This document shows positions 37,782 through 59,442 of a stretch of 64,000 nt of DNA, one piece after another. The translations under genes and the position numbers were made by a program. The notes below the pieces were generated by a model. It was given only the letters and a program-made list of their open reading frames with translations, made no database searches and was not told the origin of the DNA. The stretch comes from Escherichia phage phiWec187, in sequence record LC739536.1; one strand, given 5' to 3'. The stretch's first letter is position 1; every line of letters starts with the position of its first letter.

Positions 37782-38942
37782 TTAGTAAGAACGACCACCA
37801 AACACATACTCTGTGTAGTTTTTACGTTCTTTGTTTTTAATAACAACTTCAATGTTGTTGCCTTTATCATCGGTGAACACAAAGTGATAACCGTCACCAC
37901 CCATTGTACGGATGTGTTTTTCATCATACGTCAGCAAGATACGGTCTACACCCCAGTAGTAGTCACCTTCTTCGTCTTTATCTTCTACGGTAACGACTCC
38001 TTCCATTTCAGGAAGATGCTCTTCTCCTGACTTATGATCTACAGCTACAACATAACGATTACCGCTAAACAAACCTTGTGCTGTCATACCGTCAATATCT
38101 GTATCTGACGAAACATCTCCTGTACGATCTACACCGTTAACTTTCAGAAGTTTAACTTCTTTTGCAGCATAGCGGTGTTCAGTAATACTGATACCCATTA
38201 ATGCAAGTGCATCAGAGAATTTGTCATTAGGGTAACGGTTAAGTTCTTCTACTAATGACTGAACAATATCAAAGTTCAAGTCCACGGAAAGATTATAAAG
38301 CGTTTCAAAATCTGGTAAAAAGGCTTTGTTCTCCAGATTTTTAGCCAGATAGTCATCCATAGTAGCTTTAGGTAGTTTCTTATAGCTAAAGCTGTAGAAA
38401 ATACGGCTAGGACGATTACGCAAAAATTCTGATACATAACCATCGTTTTTAGTCAATACAAACAGCTTGTCGTAGCCACCTACACCATCCAGCAGGGTAA
38501 GCAAGCCATCCTGTGCATCTTTTTCAGCATACAGTTTATCAAATTCATCGATCATAATCATCACAGGTTGTGTGATTTTAGACATAAAATTGATAAAGCC
38601 TTCGCCATTAAAAGCACTACCGATAGAAATAGTAGGAATACCCATTTCACGAAGAGCAGAAGACAGCATTTTAGCTTGCAAAGTTTTACCGCTACCCTTC
38701 GTACCCTCAAGGAGAACACCTGTGTTTTTACCTTTGCGGCTAAGGAACGTCTTGATAATACGTTCTGATTTATCATCAGTATCACCGTATGTTACTGAAG
38801 GGACTTCCATATCGTTTTTAGGATACAGGAAGAACTCACCACTTTGAGTAACACCTACACCAAAAGTTCCTGCTGGAATTTCTTCAATATCTGTACCAGA
38901 CTTCTGACGCAGGAAGATTTGATTGCCGAATACTGTAAACAT
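37782..38942 (-). CDS. P-loop ATPase, paralog 1
   Basis: Walker A GTKGSGKT, Walker B IMIDEFDK; clearly homologous along its length to the 54446-55573 ORF. Confidence 0.6.
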   Translation of the reverse strand: MFTVFGNQIFLRQKSGTDIEEIPAGTFGVGVTQSGEFFLYPKNDMEVPSVTYGDTDDKSERIIKTFLSRKGKNTGVLLEGTKGSGKTLQAKMLSSALREMGIPTISIGSAFNGEGFINFMSKITQPVMIMIDEFDKLYAEKDAQDGLLTLLDGVGGYDKLFVLTKNDGYVSEFLRNRPSRIFYSFSYKKLPKATMDDYLAKNLENKAFLPDFETLYNLSVDLNFDIVQSLVEELNRYPNDKFSDALALMGISITEHRYAAKEVKLLKVNGVDRTGDVSSDTDIDGMTAQGLFSGNRYVVAVDHKSGEEHLPEMEGVVTVEDKDEEGDYYWGVDRILLTYDEKHIRTMGGDGYHFVFTDDKGNNIEVVIKNKERKNYTEYVFGGRSY

Positions 38943-52864: not shown

Positions 52865-52923
52865 ATCTAACCTCTTTTGTTACGATACACACAGAGTACC
52901 AGAAACTAATTTCAGATCAAGTA

Positions 52924-52951
52924 TTGACATACTGTTTTATTGTGCTAATCT
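52924..52951 (+). promoter_or_regulatory. sigma70-like promoter in the divergent region
   Basis: TTGACA at 52924, 16-nt spacer, TAATCT at 52946. Confidence 0.45.
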
Positions 52952-52983
52952 TAATGCATACACAAATGAGAGGAGATAAACGA

Positions 52984-53535
52984 ATGCAAAACACCGATCT
53001 GACTTGGGTAGAAGCCAAAGAAGCAATGTTAAAAGGTAAACGTGTTAAACATAAATACTTTTGCGAAGGGGAATGGTTTGAAATGCGTAACCGATCCATT
53101 GTAGATGAAAAAGGGAATGACATGCAACAATGGTTCAAAAATGAAATTTGGCAGGGAACAGGTTGGTCTGTAGTTGAAGAGCAGCCTAGCTCAAGCGCAC
53201 TGTTTAGCCCTATTATGTATCGCGTTATCGGTGCTTTAGTTGTTGATCACGGGATTGCAGTGGAAAAAGAATGCTGGGAAGAGGTATCTTTTTTCAACCT
53301 GGCTTCTTATGCAAAAAGCCATATGCACTTGTTTGAAGAAGGGGATGAATTTGTTCTTCGTATGCGATATGGCAAAGAATTCAGATTACCACTTGATAAT
53401 GATGTAGACACTGTTGTAAAATGGTTAGCAGAGCATTACGCTTACGATGCAATTTGTGGTCGCAGCTTCGGCAACGAACGCTGGGACATGATTTGTGAAA
53501 AATATGATTTTGAGCCGGAGTACGGAGTTTTATAA
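52984..53535 (+). CDS. hypothetical protein
   Basis: Start at ATG 52984 after GAGGAG. Confidence 0.4.
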   Translation: MQNTDLTWVEAKEAMLKGKRVKHKYFCEGEWFEMRNRSIVDEKGNDMQQWFKNEIWQGTGWSVVEEQPSSSALFSPIMYRVIGALVVDHGIAVEKECWEEVSFFNLASYAKSHMHLFEEGDEFVLRMRYGKEFRLPLDNDVDTVVKWLAEHYAYDAICGRSFGNERWDMICEKYDFEPEYGVL

Positions 53536-53786: not shown

Positions 53787-53994
53787 AATACAGACGGGAG
53801 AAAGGTATGAGTTTCTTTGTTACAGTATTTATGGCTATCTGGATTGTAGTCTCACTCGTTCTTTTCCTGGTGGGTTGTCTGGAAGAGATTAAGAAAGCGG
53901 TTATTTGCGGTTTCTTTGGCTTTATTATCTCTCCTGCCTGGATGTGGTTCTTCATTATGATTGGTTTCCTTAAAAGGTAAGTGAGGAATAAAGA

Positions 53995-54432
53995 ATGAGT
54001 AAAACAAACGCAATCGCAGATAAAGCAACGGATGTACTTCTGAACATGGTTAACGTCACTATTCAAACAATGAGTGATGTTGTGGAGTTTGGAAAACAAC
54101 AAATTCCAGAAGTAATCCATCAATTATTAGTGTGGAAAGCAGTATCCGCAGGTTTATGGCAACTTTTTAGTATTTGCTTTATGTTTATTACTTTTATTGC
54201 TGTGCGGAACCTCATAAAAGCAATTAAAGATAAAGAATGTCTGTGGTCACGAGATCGCTATGGTGAGGTATCTGCTTTGCCTATTGTTGGTCTTGTTGTC
54301 TGTGCTTTCTTTTTCTTTTTAGGATTTGTTATTTTCTTTTCGAATTTCGATTGGCTAAAAATTATTATTGCACCAAAAGTGTATCTGATTGAATTTGCTG
54401 CTGATTTAATTCGTTCATCTCAACAAAGATAA
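53995..54432 (+). CDS. membrane protein
   Basis: 145 aa with several hydrophobic helices. Confidence 0.4.
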   Translation: MSKTNAIADKATDVLLNMVNVTIQTMSDVVEFGKQQIPEVIHQLLVWKAVSAGLWQLFSICFMFITFIAVRNLIKAIKDKECLWSRDRYGEVSALPIVGLVVCAFFFFLGFVIFFSNFDWLKIIIAPKVYLIEFAADLIRSSQQR

Positions 54433-54445
54433 AAGGGGGTTTAAA

Positions 54446-55573
54446 ATGAAATACACGATTTATGGTGATATTGTAAGTGTAAATAAAGATATGGGCGTGG
54501 AATCTAACTATCTTCCACCTGGATTCTATACTGTTAGTCGTGATCCCCTTGGCAATTATTTTTTAAGCCGTGGTAATCTGACAGGTGTACCGGATGTTCT
54601 GTATGGTGAAACAGAAAAACGAGCAAATCACGTTATCCGTACATTCCATCGCCGGAGTGCACAAGGTAAAAACACAGGCTTGCTTCTGACAGGAACTAAG
54701 GGCAGTGGTAAAACTATGTTAGCCAAACTCATTAGTCGTGACCTTGTAGAAGAAGGTATTCCAACTATTATGGTTACTCAAGCCTACAGTGATGCTAATT
54801 TCATTGAACTTATTAGCAAGATCACCGACAAAGCAGTGATTATTTTTGACGAGTTTGATAAAGTGTATGAGAAGAAACAAGATCAAGAAGCACTTCTCAC
54901 TTTGTTAGATGGTACTGGCAGTGGTAATAAACTGTTTATTCTGACTAAAAACAGTGGTTTTATTTCTGAATTCTTTTTAAATCGTCCTAGTCGTGTGTTT
55001 TATAATTTTAATTATGATAAAATCTCACTAGAAACTATGATTGACTATTTAGATAAAAACCTAGATAACAAAGCACACTTTGATAATTTCCAAAGACTTT
55101 GGGATGTAAGTTTAGAGTTGTCCTTTGATGTGATCCAAGGTATAGTAGAAGAACTTAATTTCTACCCTGATTTATCCTTTAAAGAATGCATCTCTATGAT
55201 GGGCGTTTCTTTGGGTGGTGGTAATAAGTGGGATATCAGCAGCGTTGTTATTAATGGGAAACTTCAGAAAGTTAGCTGGGTATCTAGTTGGCATAACTTC
55301 ACACCTGCAATCTTTTTAGGTGGTTCGTGCACACTGGACGTGTACTTGTCATCTCCAAGTGATGCAGATTCTAAAGAAGCCCTTGCTAATAGCTCTTACG
55401 TGGTTTTTGATGATGAAGGCGATGCTCGAATTCCATTGAATGCGACAAAAATGAAAGCAGATCTTATTACAGGCGGTAAAATCGTTGTGTTTAGTGATGA
55501 TCCAGAAGATTCTTTCCGTATTGTTCTGGAACCAACTATCACCAATGGTGCAACTTTGGCAAGTGTGTTTTAA
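54446..55573 (+). CDS. P-loop ATPase, paralog 2
   Basis: Walker A GTKGSGKT, Walker B IIFDEFDK; homologous throughout to 37782-38942; terminator follows. Confidence 0.6.
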   Translation: MKYTIYGDIVSVNKDMGVESNYLPPGFYTVSRDPLGNYFLSRGNLTGVPDVLYGETEKRANHVIRTFHRRSAQGKNTGLLLTGTKGSGKTMLAKLISRDLVEEGIPTIMVTQAYSDANFIELISKITDKAVIIFDEFDKVYEKKQDQEALLTLLDGTGSGNKLFILTKNSGFISEFFLNRPSRVFYNFNYDKISLETMIDYLDKNLDNKAHFDNFQRLWDVSLELSFDVIQGIVEELNFYPDLSFKECISMMGVSLGGGNKWDISSVVINGKLQKVSWVSSWHNFTPAIFLGGSCTLDVYLSSPSDADSKEALANSSYVVFDDEGDARIPLNATKMKADLITGGKIVVFSDDPEDSFRIVLEPTITNGATLASVF

Positions 55574-55587
55574 GTAAGCCAGCAAAT

Positions 55588-55612
55588 AAAAACCCGCTCC
55601 GGCGGGTTTTCT
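55588..55612 (+). terminator. rho-independent terminator
   Basis: aacccgc-tccg-gcgggtt followed by tttc. Confidence 0.6.
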
Positions 55613-55647
55613 TGTATTGATGCCAGATTTAATAAAAGGAGTAGTAG

Positions 55648-56637
55648 ATGGCAGCACCAAAATCATGGGAACAATATAAAGAAGAGTGTATACCAATAGC
55701 AGAGAGTAAGCAAATCCAAATCTTAGGATGGACGGGACAATGGAAAGGGGTCCACACAAAACTTGATTTGTTGTGCCATTGTGGTTATAAATGGGATACT
55801 ACAAGTATTAACAGTTTTAAATGTGGTAGCGGTTGTCCACAATGTAGGAGGAAGAATATAAGGAAGTCACAAACAATGTCCGACGATCAACATATTGCAG
55901 ATTTCTTTTCTACAGGGAAATTTAAGGAAGGCACTATCTTCACTAACACAGGAACACGGGGTAAAGGATGTAGGAATATTATCTGGATGGTTGAATGTCC
56001 TGTTTGCTCTCATGATGAATATGTTCAAGCAGGTGTTTGTGATGGTAAATTTTACTCTGAAGGAGATAACCTTAAACGAGGGTATATTCCGTGTCGTTGT
56101 GGGAACTATCGGTATACAGAAGACCAGATCACCTATAGGGTAAAAAAGGAAGTAGAAGGGAAAGGGTATGTCTGGGTAGATTGGATTACCAAACCCTCTT
56201 CTATAGGTAAGTTTAAATATCTTTGTCTTGTGCATGGGGAGCAGATAGGGAGTGCTCATAATTTATTAAGCCTCGGTCGAGGTTGTCCTATGTGTGCTGG
56301 TCATAGTCAGCAGCAGTTATATATTAATATTGTTAAGGATGATAATATTATAGTTGCTCTTAAGTTTGGTATAGCTAAAGATAGTGATAGACGATTAAAA
56401 ATTCAAAATAGCCGTAATATGTTTCCTATGGAGCGTATTTGTTTATATGATTTTAGCACAGTAAAACAATGTAAGGCTGCTGAAAGAGCTATAAAGAAAA
56501 AATTAAAAACTGGTATTTTAACGGAAAGAGAGTTGAAAGACGGTTATACAGAAACAGTAAGTGTTTCTGATTTGGAAAATCTTCAAAAAATTATTACACA
56601 ATATGGTGGCAAATTAGTATACAGTAAGGAGATGTAA
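55648..56637 (+). CDS. zinc-ribbon-rich protein, possible nuclease
   Basis: Repeated CxxC pairs (CGSGCPQC, CPVCSH, CRCGNY, GRGCPMC); C-terminal YINIV...KFGIAKD is weakly GIY-YIG-like. Confidence 0.35.
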   Translation: MAAPKSWEQYKEECIPIAESKQIQILGWTGQWKGVHTKLDLLCHCGYKWDTTSINSFKCGSGCPQCRRKNIRKSQTMSDDQHIADFFSTGKFKEGTIFTNTGTRGKGCRNIIWMVECPVCSHDEYVQAGVCDGKFYSEGDNLKRGYIPCRCGNYRYTEDQITYRVKKEVEGKGYVWVDWITKPSSIGKFKYLCLVHGEQIGSAHNLLSLGRGCPMCAGHSQQQLYINIVKDDNIIVALKFGIAKDSDRRLKIQNSRNMFPMERICLYDFSTVKQCKAAERAIKKKLKTGILTERELKDGYTETVSVSDLENLQKIITQYGGKLVYSKEM

Positions 56638-57189
56638 ATGCGGATTACTGATAAGTATGTGTTCTTCTTTTCAGCAAAAGATGAATTTAGCAACTGGTAT
56701 CTATCATCTTTTATTGAACCTTTAGCACCCAAGTATAATAATTCTATTACAAGTTCTGTTGAATTTACTTGTGTGGAACAATATATGATGTGGAGAAAAG
56801 CATGTTTGTTTTATGATTACAGTATTGCATCTTCTATTTTAACCGGAGATCTAAGATATACAGGAGAAAAAGAACAAGCATATTATAAGCGACTAGGCAG
56901 ATTAGTTAAAGATTATGATGAAGATACCTGGACTTCTTTACGGGAGAAGATTGTCAAACGTGGTTTGTATCTTAAATACACACAAAATGAAGATCTCAAA
57001 AATAAACTTATAGCTTACGCAGATAAGGAGTTTGTAGAGGCAAGTCCTTATGATTCTATTTATGGTATCAAAATGGGGATGTGGGATCGGGACGTGGAAA
57101 ATAAGGATTGTTGGAAAGGACAAAATCTTTTAGGAAAATGGCATACAGACCTTGCTGTTTATCTAAAAGCCCACTCTGATATTTCCTGA
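56638..57189 (+). CDS. NADAR-domain protein (YbiA-like)
   Basis: FFFS...FSNW, EQYMMWRKA, EASPYDSIYGIKMG and GQNLLGK blocks match the NADAR/YbiA pattern. Confidence 0.6.
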   Translation: MRITDKYVFFFSAKDEFSNWYLSSFIEPLAPKYNNSITSSVEFTCVEQYMMWRKACLFYDYSIASSILTGDLRYTGEKEQAYYKRLGRLVKDYDEDTWTSLREKIVKRGLYLKYTQNEDLKNKLIAYADKEFVEASPYDSIYGIKMGMWDRDVENKDCWKGQNLLGKWHTDLAVYLKAHSDIS

Positions 57190-57405
57190 TATTTTGAAAA
57201 TTTTTATTTTTATAAAAAGGGGTGTGGGTTTCATGTACGGAAATTCACCCTCTGAATAATATATTCAGAGTAAATATTATTTTGTACTCTGTTAATAAAC
57301 TATTTAATTTGTTTGTTGGATTATGATATCTGGTTTTTAAAAGGCATACTATCTCTTAACTACTATTTATAACAGAACAGTAAAATCATTTTTATAAAAA
57401 GGACA

Positions 57406-57610
57406 AAATTATTTAAAGTTTTTACAGATTTTTGGATACAAATTTTGAAAATGAAAAGTTCAAGTTTGGTCAAAATTATTTAAAGTTTTTGTATGTATTT
57501 CTATCCAGATTTTGAAAATGAAAACTTCAATTTTTTAAAAATTCCCCAGTTTATTTAAAGTTTTTTTGCCTTTTTCCGTAGAAAAATCAAAAATGAAAAG
57601 TTCAATTTCG
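57406..57610. repeat. three tandem ~65-75-bp direct repeats
   Basis: Each unit carries tatttaaagttttt then, about 20 nt later, tttgaaaatgaaaagttcaa. Confidence 0.7.
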
Positions 57611-57629
57611 TGTTTTTATAGGTGTGCGT

Positions 57630-57745
57630 ATGATAATCATTCTCATTTGTAAATGAGAATGATTATCATTTAATTATGTAAGTGATAATCATTCTCACTA
57701 AGAGAATGAGAATCATTAGCAAATGAGAATTTTTCTCATTTATAG
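57630..57745. promoter_or_regulatory. cluster of Fur-box-like palindromes
   Basis: Perfect 19-bp inverted repeat atgataatcattctcattt / aaatgagaatgattatcat (57630-57669) containing AATGATAATCATT, an exact 13-nt match to the core of the E. coli Fur box GATAATGATAATCATTATC; two more partial copies to 57745. Confidence 0.5.
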
Positions 57746-58001
57746 AATAACGCGCAGGGGTGGTGTTTGTCTCGCGCTCCCGTGTCCCCTCGCCATACAA
57801 TAAGAATAGCATAACTAACAACAAAAGCAAGCAATTATTTTTATCTTTACATTTCTTTACAAATTTATTTTAGACGAGCTACCGGCGATCAACCTTCCAA
57901 CCAGTGCCCCCTGGTATGTTAGCCCCGCCTTTACGCCGTGGGGTGGCGTTTCCTCTTCTGTATGTAAAACAGTATAAGCCCGATCCCTGGGCTTGTCAAG
58001 A

Positions 58002-58268
58002 TTATTTTTTGTTTTCTTGCCAGGATAGGACACCTAACCAAAAATACATGTCGCCCCGCGCCCCTGGCGGGATCTTGCTTTCCCCGCCGCCACTGCAAGC
58101 CCATAGATAACCATTAGCGAACGGATCAAAGTGATCTATTTCTTCCACCTTATGATCGCCCAGGTTGAGAACGGTTTCAACCTTTAAGCCCGTTGCGCTT
58201 GCTACCTGGTGCGCCGTGCCGCCTTGCCAGCCTAATGAGTGCATGAGGTGTAGAGTAGTATTTGTCAT
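58002..58268 (-). CDS. hypothetical small protein encoded in a GC-rich island
   Basis: 88-aa ORF with its own promoter and 5' hairpin-RBS architecture (gcgcc-ctggtt-ggcgc, then caaagaaaggg...ATG); GC content far above the flanks. Confidence 0.45.
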   Translation of the reverse strand: MTNTTLHLMHSLGWQGGTAHQVASATGLKVETVLNLGDHKVEEIDHFDPFANGYLWACSGGGESKIPPGARGDMYFWLGVLSWQENKK

Positions 58269-58315
58269 GGTATCGCCCTTTCTTTGATGTGCGCCCTGGT
58301 TGGCGCGGTAGAAAG

Positions 58316-58344
58316 ATAATAGCCCTTTCCTTTATAGATAGCAA
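58316..58344 (-). promoter_or_regulatory. sigma70-like promoter for the 58268 gene
   Basis: Minus-strand TTGCTA, 17-nt spacer, TATTAT. Confidence 0.45.
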
Positions 58345-58380
58345 GCAAAAAAAAGAAATGAAAAAAGATTAAAAAAGGGG

Positions 58381-58409
58381 TTGACGTTCCTCACCTGGTA
58401 GCGTATTAT
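58381..58409 (+). promoter_or_regulatory. sigma70-like promoter (divergent partner)
   Basis: TTGACG, 17-nt spacer, TATTAT. Confidence 0.5.
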
Positions 58410-58536
58410 TCATCTTGTCGAGGGGGGCGAGGCACAACGACAATAAACAAAAGGAGGGCGCAATGTAGGACGGGCAAAGGTGAGGATCTCCATAATCCAC
58501 CGTCACAATAACATTACTTATAAAAGGTTGATAACG

Positions 58537-58632
58537 ATGATCAAGAAAGAAAACAGCTTGACGGTTGGAACGATTAACGCTATCATTCTTGCCGTTCCAT
58601 TTTGGATTGTAGTTGCGGTTATTATTTTTTAA
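58537..58632 (+). CDS. small hydrophobic peptide (31 aa)
   Basis: MIKKENSLTVGTINAIILAVPFWIVVAVIIF; below the ORF-track length cutoff; weak RBS. Confidence 0.3.
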   Translation: MIKKENSLTVGTINAIILAVPFWIVVAVIIF

Positions 58633-58640
58633 AAATATTC

Positions 58641-58668
58641 TTGACAACGTTTTTTAATCTGATAAGAT
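58641..58668 (+). promoter_or_regulatory. early promoter
   Basis: TTGACA, 16-nt spacer, TAAGAT; followed by the 58681-58696 hairpin. Confidence 0.6.
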
Positions 58669-58720
58669 GTATCACATAGGGCGGCAATAGTGCCGCTCAT
58701 AACAGAAGAGAGAAATAATC

Positions 58721-58993
58721 ATGGCATCATATAGCGCATCAATGATCGTAATGGGCATCACTGGTAAACCTATGCGCGGTGGCGGATCTTTCGCTAACAT
58801 CAATATTGATGGGCGTTTATCCCTGGATGCAGCGATCACCGTGGCACGGGAAACATTTAAAAAAGAATGCAATTTCAATAAACAAGATTATCTCGGTTTC
58901 GCTATTGAAAAAACCGCGCGCTTTGTGGATTATAAAAGCCCGAAAATGATCGACACTACACTAAAAGCGCAAGATGTAGCGTTTTTGCTTTAA
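58721..58993 (+). CDS. early protein, hypothetical
   Basis: 90-aa ORF with promoter, 5' stem-loop and RBS. Confidence 0.5.
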   Translation: MASYSASMIVMGITGKPMRGGGSFANINIDGRLSLDAAITVARETFKKECNFNKQDYLGFAIEKTARFVDYKSPKMIDTTLKAQDVAFLL

Positions 58994-58996
58994 GGC

Positions 58997-59024
58997 TTGA
59001 CACTGAAAAATAATTTAGTAATAT
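58997..59024 (+). promoter_or_regulatory. early promoter
   Basis: TTGACA, 16-nt spacer, TAATAT; hairpin ggcgggg...cccgcc at 59036-59057. Confidence 0.6.
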
Positions 59025-59079
59025 ATACCACGTAAGGCGGGGAAATGATTTCCCGCCAAATCAAAGAAAGGGTAATGCA

Positions 59080-59442
59080 ATGAGCAAGCAAATCAATACT
59101 ATCATGTTTAATCTGGTATCTTTCCGCGATGACGTGAAAAACCTTTCGCGTGATGCAGTGGATGCACGGATCGAAAGCTATCGCACACAGATCGCAACGT
59201 TACCGCTGAAACGTGATCAACATGCCGCTAATATGATGCTTGATGCTATGATTAAAAAGATGATTCAATGTGATCTTACCCTGGCTTATGAATATGCTGG
59301 CGATCTTTTTGTAACGTATAATAAGCCCGTTCCAGGTATGAGCACCACGGAAGAATTGCATGCCTTAAATCTGCGACAAGATGCATGGGATAACATGCGC
59401 CGTGTTATGGTATGGGTAGAAAGCGGTAAAATTTACGAATAA
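59080..59442 (+). CDS. early protein, hypothetical
   Basis: 120-aa ORF with promoter/hairpin/RBS. Confidence 0.5.
   Translation: MSKQINTIMFNLVSFRDDVKNLSRDAVDARIESYRTQIATLPLKRDQHAANMMLDAMIKKMIQCDLTLAYEYAGDLFVTYNKPVPGMSTTEELHALNLRQDAWDNMRRVMVWVESGKIYE

Follow-up and report, generated by a model that had tools for sequence, protein, structure and literature searches.

The closest described relatives of the gene treated here come from the Vibrio phage ICP1 and from PLE, a phage satellite of V. cholerae. The gene itself belongs to Escherichia phage phiWec187 (sequence record LC739536.1) and is situated in a stretch of 64,000 nucleotides, to which we refer as the window; the list of open reading frames (ORFs) confirms it at positions 55648-56637 of the plus strand, with an ATG start and 329 amino acids (aa). 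A preliminary description, made from the letters of the sequence, had presented its product as a protein rich in zinc ribbons, with a possible GIY-YIG-like nuclease at the C-terminus. In our view the product most likely cuts DNA at specific sequences, as an endonuclease of the family that combines CapR zinc fingers with T5orf172, and serves as a free-standing element of homing or competition; we assign to this reading a probability of roughly 0.6.

CapR of PLE is a zinc finger of the form CxxC...CxC, the cysteines of which are needed for DNA binding; zinc-dependent, sequence-specific binding was demonstrated in gel-shift assays with Cys-to-Ser mutants (PMC8096241). The hallmark of the CapR family is two Cys pairs, CxxC and CxC, separated by 24-26 aa (PMC8096241). 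In ICP1, several putative homing endonucleases, among them gp165 and gp174, begin with this domain at the N-terminus, and all of these terminate in T5orf172 (PMC8096241); gp165 in particular is called a putative homing endonuclease in two studies (PMC8096241, PMC10448857). T5orf172 has been placed within the GIY-YIG nuclease superfamily (PMC8263062, PMC10448857), and MUG113 is a profile highly related to it (PMC10448857). A survey found that 87% of T5orf172 genes are associated with tandemly repeated CapR, DUF723 or DUF4397 fingers, and it reported repeat-mediated in-frame deletions as well as the exchange of DNA-binding modules (PMC10448857). Within the T5orf172 family, metal-dependent DNA cleavage has been shown only for Odn of ICP1, where it is site-specific and is abolished in vitro and in vivo by the substitution E180A (PMC8263062).

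Family membership and zinc-finger array

We have hardly any doubt that the window protein is a member of the CapR/T5orf172 family. The Pfam CapR homology domain (PF21817) matches with 89.1 bits (cut-off 24.2; E=2.1e-25) in three stretches, the best of them at residues 90-152, and PHROG 681, named 'endonuclease', matches with E=3.3e-69. The Pfam T5orf172 profile (PF10544) passes marginally at residues 231-288, with 20.6 bits against a cut-off of 20 (E=6.7e-4), and is accompanied by a weaker match of MUG113 at the C-terminus. The profile searches with hidden Markov models (HMMs) agree in this way with a GIY-YIG-like nuclease that follows the zinc ribbons, as had been supposed from the letters. 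Compared directly with ICP1 gp165, the protein displays 33% identity over 252 residues (E=1e-33).

In a Pfam scan of 47 individual homologs, which extend down to ~30% identity, CapR was present in all 47, T5orf172 in 27 (counted at E<=0.01, best 3.5e-6), the related zinc-finger families DUF4379 and DUF723 in 18 and 16, and MUG113 in seven. The family comprises 2,066 cluster representatives at E<=1e-3, and homologs occur in 419 phage records, including phages of Vibrio, Aeromonas, Klebsiella and Pectobacterium, that is, in unrelated phages and in unrelated contexts. Searches of complete E. coli genomes (blastn), of plasmids (tblastn) and, for close relatives, of species-representative genomes returned no cellular homologs or targets; at the sensitivity applied, the family appears limited to phages. 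The family as such is known already: it has been described, Pfam models exist, RefSeq orthologs are labelled 'endonuclease' and UniProt uses the name 'CapR homology domain-containing protein'. NCBIfam holds no model for the window protein.

Residues 1-216 contain three CxxC motifs (CPQC at residue 63, CPVC at 117, CPMC at 213), two CxC motifs (CHC at 43, CRC at 149) and one CxxH motif (CLVH at 193), which combine to three sites of four ligands each: C43/C45 with C63/C66, C117/C120 with C149/C151, and C193/H196 with C213/C216. The zinc sites of the preliminary description are found again in this arrangement, but its count of four CxxC pairs within the first ~200 residues is not. Among the 47 homologs the zinc ligands are invariant or nearly so, and C216 is invariant. 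Judged by sequence, the ligand pattern is far beyond chance, because the CapR profile matches at the above E-value in three stretches and because the predicted ligands are conserved to this degree.

Comparison of alleles divides the protein into four parts, namely the units A, B and C and the nuclease (Table 1). Unit B is of the canonical CapR type; in it C117-x2-C120 and C149-x-C151 are separated by 28 residues, which is slightly longer than the published spacing. Units A and C carry variants of the motif (CxC...CxxC and CxxH...CxxC) and are homologous to each other, as the HMM of unit A also matches residues 156-216. Unit A is the type of unit whose copy number varies among alleles (1, 2 or 3). 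The best-supported reading of this array is that the three units are predicted to bind a composite DNA site.

Nuclease domain and structure models

At the C-terminus the motif quoted in the preliminary description is present as L-Y225-I-N-I-V, K239-F-G241-I-A-K-D and R248-R249, and it coincides with the conserved catalytic core. In the 47 homologs Y225, K239, G241, R249 and E279 never vary, and N254 and E302 hardly do. E279 is aligned with E180 of Odn, and the Tyr, Gly and Arg positions of the core align as well. The tyrosine of the second motif, 'YIG', is represented by Phe240 in the window protein; where the T5orf172 domains of Odn and gp165 from ICP1 are aligned with it, they have Val. The predicted catalytic core is intact, and it follows the zinc-finger array closely, the linker between unit C and the nuclease measuring ~6 residues after the last zinc ligand.

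The full-length AlphaFold2 model has a mean pLDDT (predicted local distance difference test) of 91.6, with the lowest confidence (mean 77) at residues 211-220, the stretch that joins unit C to the nuclease. The C-terminal domain modelled alone reaches a pLDDT of 94.3 and a predicted template modelling score (pTM) of 0.87, and its secondary structure elements follow the order beta-beta-alpha-beta-alpha-alpha. In a Foldseek search of the PDB with this domain model, the top seven matches are all GIY-YIG nucleases (Slx1 in 6sei and 7cq3 and HIGLE, i.e. At-HIGLE, in 7wme), with a best E-value of 0.1 and template modelling scores (TM-scores, normalised to the query) of 0.41-0.58; UvrC is located lower in the list. 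The predicted structure is compatible with the supposed nuclease fold, although these E-values are weak. Among predicted viral structures there were 189 matches at E<=1e-3, with names that include CapR homology, T5orf172, GIY-YIG and homing endonuclease. The full-length model, being that of a multi-domain protein, was uninformative in Foldseek. A profile search of PDB sequences returned no solved structure related by sequence; ribosomal protein L31 and TUP1, which came up in it, were rejected as noise.

Based on this dataset, we consider it quite probable that the gene encodes an active site-specific nuclease, as predicted from the domain architecture and the conserved core residues.

Allelic variation, deletion and selection

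The window comes from an E. coli myovirus of the phi92 type, a Justusliebigvirus with a genome of about 147 kb, and positions 53900-57900 are 98.7% identical at the nucleotide level to the phages BME3 and VEcB. In comparison with seven close relatives (evaluated in segments of 100 bp), the flanks of the gene are 95-100% identical, and the zinc-finger region at 55700-56300 displays an identity of 49-87%, with the affected sub-segments differing from phage to phage. Against phi92, units B and C are 54% identical at the nucleotide level, where synonymous divergence (dS) is saturated, and the nuclease domain 93%; against phAPEC8 the pattern is reversed, with 75% in the fingers and 57% in the nuclease. 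These values indicate that the histories of fingers and nuclease are discordant and that whole modules have been swapped. Among closely related phages the DNA-binding part is rearranged at an unusually high pace. For the B+C module of phi92, a search of 50,697 phage records yielded three matches of at least 95%, the next best one shown being at 52%; this lack of close relatives in the phage records indicates a replacement from an unsampled source.

The window and EmilieFrey have a single A unit, phi92, muut and phAPEC8 have two, and alia and ESCO13 have three; the lengths of the homologs increase in steps with the number of A units (~330, 395 and 465-485 aa). The allelic series at this locus comprises one to three A units and at least two unrelated B+C modules. 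An apparent second paralog, suggested by two places per record in tblastn, was rejected, as the extra place is an additional N-terminal repeat of the same gene.

The window allele is shorter than the two-unit form by exactly 201 bp, in frame. In phi92 an exact direct repeat of 15 nucleotides, GGAGAATGGAAAGGG, is found at nucleotides 88 and 289 of the gene, a spacing of 201 nucleotides, and the window matches unit 1 of phi92 upstream of the junction and unit 2 downstream of it. On this comparison, we identify the window allele as a one-unit deletion variant that was formed via the 15-nucleotide direct repeats.

In diverged pairs the ratio of nonsynonymous to synonymous substitution rates (dN/dS) amounts to 0.13-0.34, in fingers and nuclease alike, and therefore the protein is maintained by selection.

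A replaceable cassette between ATPase and downstream genes

The order of genes is ATPase, endonuclease and NADAR in phi92, muut, alia, EmilieFrey and ECGD1, and genomes of the Phapecoctavirus type (phAPEC8, ESCO13, PsgM04F) have two further small genes between endonuclease and NADAR. In every Justusliebigvirus and Phapecoctavirus genome inspected, the endonuclease gene is located between the ATPase and the NADAR genes. In 55 phage records the ATPase reaches an identity of 95% or more (99% or more in 54 of them). For the endonuclease, 55 records reach 60% or more, with values spread over 60-100%. These record counts suggest that the endonuclease is present throughout Justusliebigvirus.

A sister lineage of the same subfamily, represented by Klebsiella phage phi1_175008 and by the IMG/VR contig L007, carries the ATPase at 74% identity and neither endonuclease nor NADAR; L007 is one of four IMG/VR loci found for the neighbouring ATPase. 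The homology to this lineage ends at the stop codon of the ATPase (window position 55573) and resumes at ~57404, and in between the sister lineage has a small ORF and a DUF6939 gene (L007 7168-8002, L013 6167-7122). With these two limits, the left edge of the replaceable cassette falls exactly at the endonuclease gene, and NADAR is carried by the cassette as well. The DUF6939 gene was considered as a diverged NADAR and rejected, since BLASTP displayed no similarity between them.

Comparison with described systems

Like gp165 and gp174 of ICP1, the window protein has tandem CapR-type units at the N-terminus and a T5orf172 domain at the C-terminus, and it shares with the ICP1 genes a variable number of repeats, an in-frame deletion via intragenic repeats, as from gp174 to gp174*, and an exchange of modules (PMC10448857). 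Unlike these genes, it is carried by a member of the Stephanstirmvirinae of E. coli, not by a Mohonavirus of Vibrio, and its genomic context differs from that of ICP1 ORF165. In the ICP1 family presence varies between isolates, whereas the window gene is apparently fixed at one site in two genera and its content varies.

The CxxC...CxC finger is shared with PLE CapR, the repressor of a satellite capsid operon, and unit B is the best match of the Pfam CapR profile; unlike the window protein, PLE CapR lacks a nuclease domain, its function being that of a transcriptional repressor. With Odn (gp88) the window protein has the family of the nuclease domain in common, but the DNA-binding part of Odn is a RepA_N-like domain (Pfam DUF6945) instead of zinc fingers. 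Odn is, moreover, an origin-directed anti-satellite weapon and not a homing gene.

Modular design and free-standing insertion are well established for the GIY-YIG homing endonucleases of phage T4, I-TevI and the Seg proteins (see also PMC10448857). The window protein resembles them in its architecture of 'beads on a string', in which a small GIY-YIG-type domain is tethered to DNA-binding modules, and in its free-standing gene between conserved phage genes. It differs from I-TevI in that the nuclease is C-terminal and not N-terminal, and from the T4 enzymes in that the second motif reads Phe/Lys-x-Gly and not Tyr-Ile-Gly, that tandem zinc fingers are used in place of helix-turn-helix or minor-groove elements, and that the linker is very short.

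Proposed function

A mechanism in agreement with these comparisons would begin with the three tandem zinc-finger units, which would read a DNA site, and with the C-terminal GIY-YIG-type domain, which would cut nearby using Arg249 and Glu279. During mixed infection with a related phage, the rival genome would be cut at or near the cognate locus, and recombinational repair would copy the endonuclease gene, probably together with the adjoining NADAR gene, into the rival, in the manner of homing or marker exclusion. Exchange, duplication or loss of zinc-finger units could shift the specificity within a short time. To judge from phage GIY-YIG homing genes and from the ICP1 family, the likely substrate would be the corresponding region of a related phage that infects the same cell.

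As biological role, homing or marker exclusion is the explanation that we favour, with some reserve. The suggestion of a free-standing homing endonuclease or DNA-targeting factor had already been made in the preliminary description, and the domain searches agree with it, as does the identity with gp165; homing itself is a presumed role. The gene is a stand-alone ORF with a ribosome-binding site of its own between conserved genes, a placement that is characteristic of homing genes. Both the cassette boundary and the mosaicism fit homing or marker exclusion, and the signatures of a selfish element seen here (divergence of the fingers, mosaicism of modules, repeat-mediated deletion and position at a cassette edge) match those reported for the T5orf172 genes of ICP1 (PMC10448857).

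Several points weigh against this interpretation. The T5orf172 score exceeds the Pfam cut-off only just, and the E-values of the Foldseek search of the PDB are not significant, as none reaches 1e-3. No target site has been identified, and homing has been verified experimentally for no T5orf172 gene (PMC10448857). Classical homing genes are expected to be polymorphic for presence and absence, but this gene appears to be present in essentially every Justusliebigvirus record and is found in every Phapecoctavirus genome inspected, so that the variation is allelic; there is no clean empty site, and the only genomes without the gene differ by the whole cassette. Allelic polymorphism of this kind agrees just as well with alleles engaged in an arms race, or with a resident weapon like Odn.

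Alternative explanations

The last point leads to the possibility that the gene is a domesticated, fixed weapon, the finger array of which would be aimed at foreign DNA of competing phages, satellites or host elements, with the rapid turnover of fingers as an arms race with the target. Such a function would be in accordance with a gene that keeps one fixed position in two phage genera, with purifying selection on both halves and invariant catalytic residues, and with DNA-binding modules that are hypervariable and laterally replaced. A precedent is given by Odn, in which T5orf172 was fused to a new DNA-binding domain against a satellite and which cuts the replication origin of PLE (PMC8263062). 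However, searches of complete E. coli genomes, plasmids and species-representative genomes brought up no candidate target, although a site of ~20-40 bp would escape such searches, and the architecture is that of the putative homing genes of ICP1, not that of Odn with its RepA_N-like domain. We regard a fixed weapon as possible, but unlikely.

A related and rather improbable idea is that of a permanently resident, quickly retargeted nuclease, in which a modular array of units of ~65 residues would determine the target and the units would be added, deleted and swapped between phages, the nuclease serving in phage-versus-phage or phage-versus-satellite conflict. A nuclease of this type might also drive the adjoining NADAR gene. 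From what is known of NADAR enzymes, the latter is a candidate counter-defence gene.

The gene could further be conceived as the decaying remnant of a once-active homing gene, with the 201-bp deletion as a first step of degeneration and no function left. In-frame deletions and frameshifts are signs of instability in the homing-type genes of ICP1 (PMC10448857), and two relatives have disrupted annotations. In ECGD1 the endonuclease (L015 1947-3118) has a deletion of one nucleotide (CC to C) between units B and C and is annotated as two overlapping coding sequences; this frameshift may or may not be real. In KKP 3954 the endonuclease (L016 1501-2492) is likewise annotated as two overlapping coding sequences. 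We rejected this split allele as a case of decay: its neighbour, the ATPase gene, is likewise split, as would be expected from sequencing or assembly errors, and the split is therefore probably a sequencing artefact. In the window, on the other hand, the ORF is intact with all ligands and catalytic residues, and the form with one A unit recurs in many lineages (325-334 aa), including Phapecoctavirus-type phages. Since dN/dS lies well below 1 in diverged pairs and purifying selection makes simple decay unlikely, we judge this explanation to be quite improbable.

Least probable of all is a DNA-binding regulator with the nuclease lost or rarely used, controlling for example NADAR or the conserved downstream region. 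It would agree with CapR as a repressor derived from the same type of zinc-finger domain (PMC8096241), with I-TevI, which doubles as a repressor (PMC10448857), and with an operon-like setting, in which a hairpin precedes the endonuclease gene and the ribosome-binding site of NADAR falls in its 3' end. Against it, a nuclease domain is missing from CapR itself, and the control of a conserved promoter is hard to reconcile with hypervariable fingers. Moreover, the nuclease domain is kept at full length, and its Tyr, Arg and Glu stay invariant, across a divergence of more than 2,000 cluster representatives; this is unexpected for a pure repressor, which the invariance of the catalytic core makes unlikely.

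Locus and adjoining genes

Table 1. Coordinates of the endonuclease gene, its parts and adjoining features in the window.
Feature	Position	Strand	Details and source
Endonuclease gene	55648..56637	+	329 aa; three zinc-finger units and T5orf172/GIY-YIG-type domain; Pfam, PHROG, AlphaFold2
Zinc-finger unit A	55660..55845	+	residues 5-66; predicted ligands C43, C45, C63, C66; unit HMM from alleles
Zinc-finger unit B	55882..56112	+	residues 79-155; C117xxC120 ... C149xC151; canonical CapR-type unit
Zinc-finger unit C	56113..56295	+	residues 156-216; C193xxH196 ... C213xxC216
T5orf172/GIY-YIG-type nuclease domain	56308..56634	+	residues 221-329; Y225, K239-F-G241, R249, E279, E302
Junction of 201-bp in-frame deletion (GGACAATGGAAAGGG), one A unit removed	55735..55749	+	comparison with phi92
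Ribosome-binding site AGGAG	55636..55640	+	8 nucleotides 5' of endonuclease ATG; read from sequence
Terminator-like GC-rich hairpin and U-run	55589..55610	+	between ATPase stop codon and endonuclease start; pattern scan
AAA-type ATPase gene	54446-55573		upstream of endonuclease; PHROG 2376, E=7e-108
NADAR gene	56638-57189	+	Pfam NADAR, E=3.5e-36

The AGGAG motif that precedes the endonuclease gene (Table 1) is also annotated as the ribosome-binding site of gene 222 in phi92. At the other end, the stop codon directly abuts the ATG of the NADAR gene, the ribosome-binding site of which falls inside the 3' end of the endonuclease gene. The neighbours are those named in the preliminary description, which had placed the gene between a second ATPase paralog and NADAR. 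The other ATPase paralog is located at 38184-38939 on the minus strand, with 47% amino acid identity over residues 3-256; two ATPase copies are present in Justusliebigvirus genomes and one place was found in Phapecoctavirus records (tblastn). A tblastn search of the window with the endonuclease protein displayed no paralogs.

The hairpin upstream of the gene consists of AAAACCCGC-TCCG-GCGGGTTTT, followed by a T-rich run. In an RNA fold of positions 55571-55660 it is the main element (z=-2.1), and phi92 and muut share it except for a single difference in the loop. This hairpin may damp read-through into the endonuclease gene or limit its expression. No tRNA was found in the window and no Rfam family in positions 55300-59200.

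Downstream of NADAR, an ORF-poor stretch at 57533-58428 (and also 58656-59056) is 85-91% identical in nucleotide sequence to Phapecoctavirus (phAPEC8, ESCO13, PsgM04F), and the genes neighbouring 57533-58428 reach only 63-73% to these genomes. Positions 57907-58363 are ~90% identical in all six frames (tblastx), and neither an Rfam family nor a tRNA was detected in the ORF-poor stretch. The tract at 57533-58428 could be the result of a recent exchange between genera that ends near the endonuclease/NADAR cassette, or it could be a conserved non-coding element. In the intergenic region after NADAR, positions 57630-57669 form a perfect palindrome with an 18-bp stem, ATGATAATCATTCTCATT-TGTA-AATGAGAATGATTATCAT, which is conserved in relatives according to reverse-strand blastn matches; muut and alia have annotated repeat regions nearby. 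The palindrome could serve as a bidirectional terminator or as a protein-binding site.

A second mosaic zone was observed ~2 kb upstream, at 52900-53500 (ORF 52924..53535, 203 aa). It is 57-72% identical in nucleotide sequence in PD06, EmilieFrey and one IMG/VR contig and 94-100% in phi92 and muut, with a sharp return to ~99% at roughly 53600.

Significance

The analysis allows for a confident annotation of the gene product as CapR-zinc-finger/T5orf172 (GIY-YIG-type) endonuclease, where many GenBank records of this group still say 'hypothetical protein'. The added value is modest: what the locus offers is a very clean allelic series at a single fixed site, and no new kind of system. Dozens of near-identical genomes differ almost only in the finger array, and thereby provide a natural series in which T5orf172 homing and the targeting by fingers can be tested. 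The findings extend to the Stephanstirmvirinae of E. coli the pattern described for ICP1, in which nuclease genes are found where exchanged DNA segments begin or end, and change through the reshuffling of their repeated DNA-binding modules. If it is true that each unit reads a definable stretch of DNA, the allelic series would represent a ready-made system for deriving the recognition code of a new class of modular nucleases.

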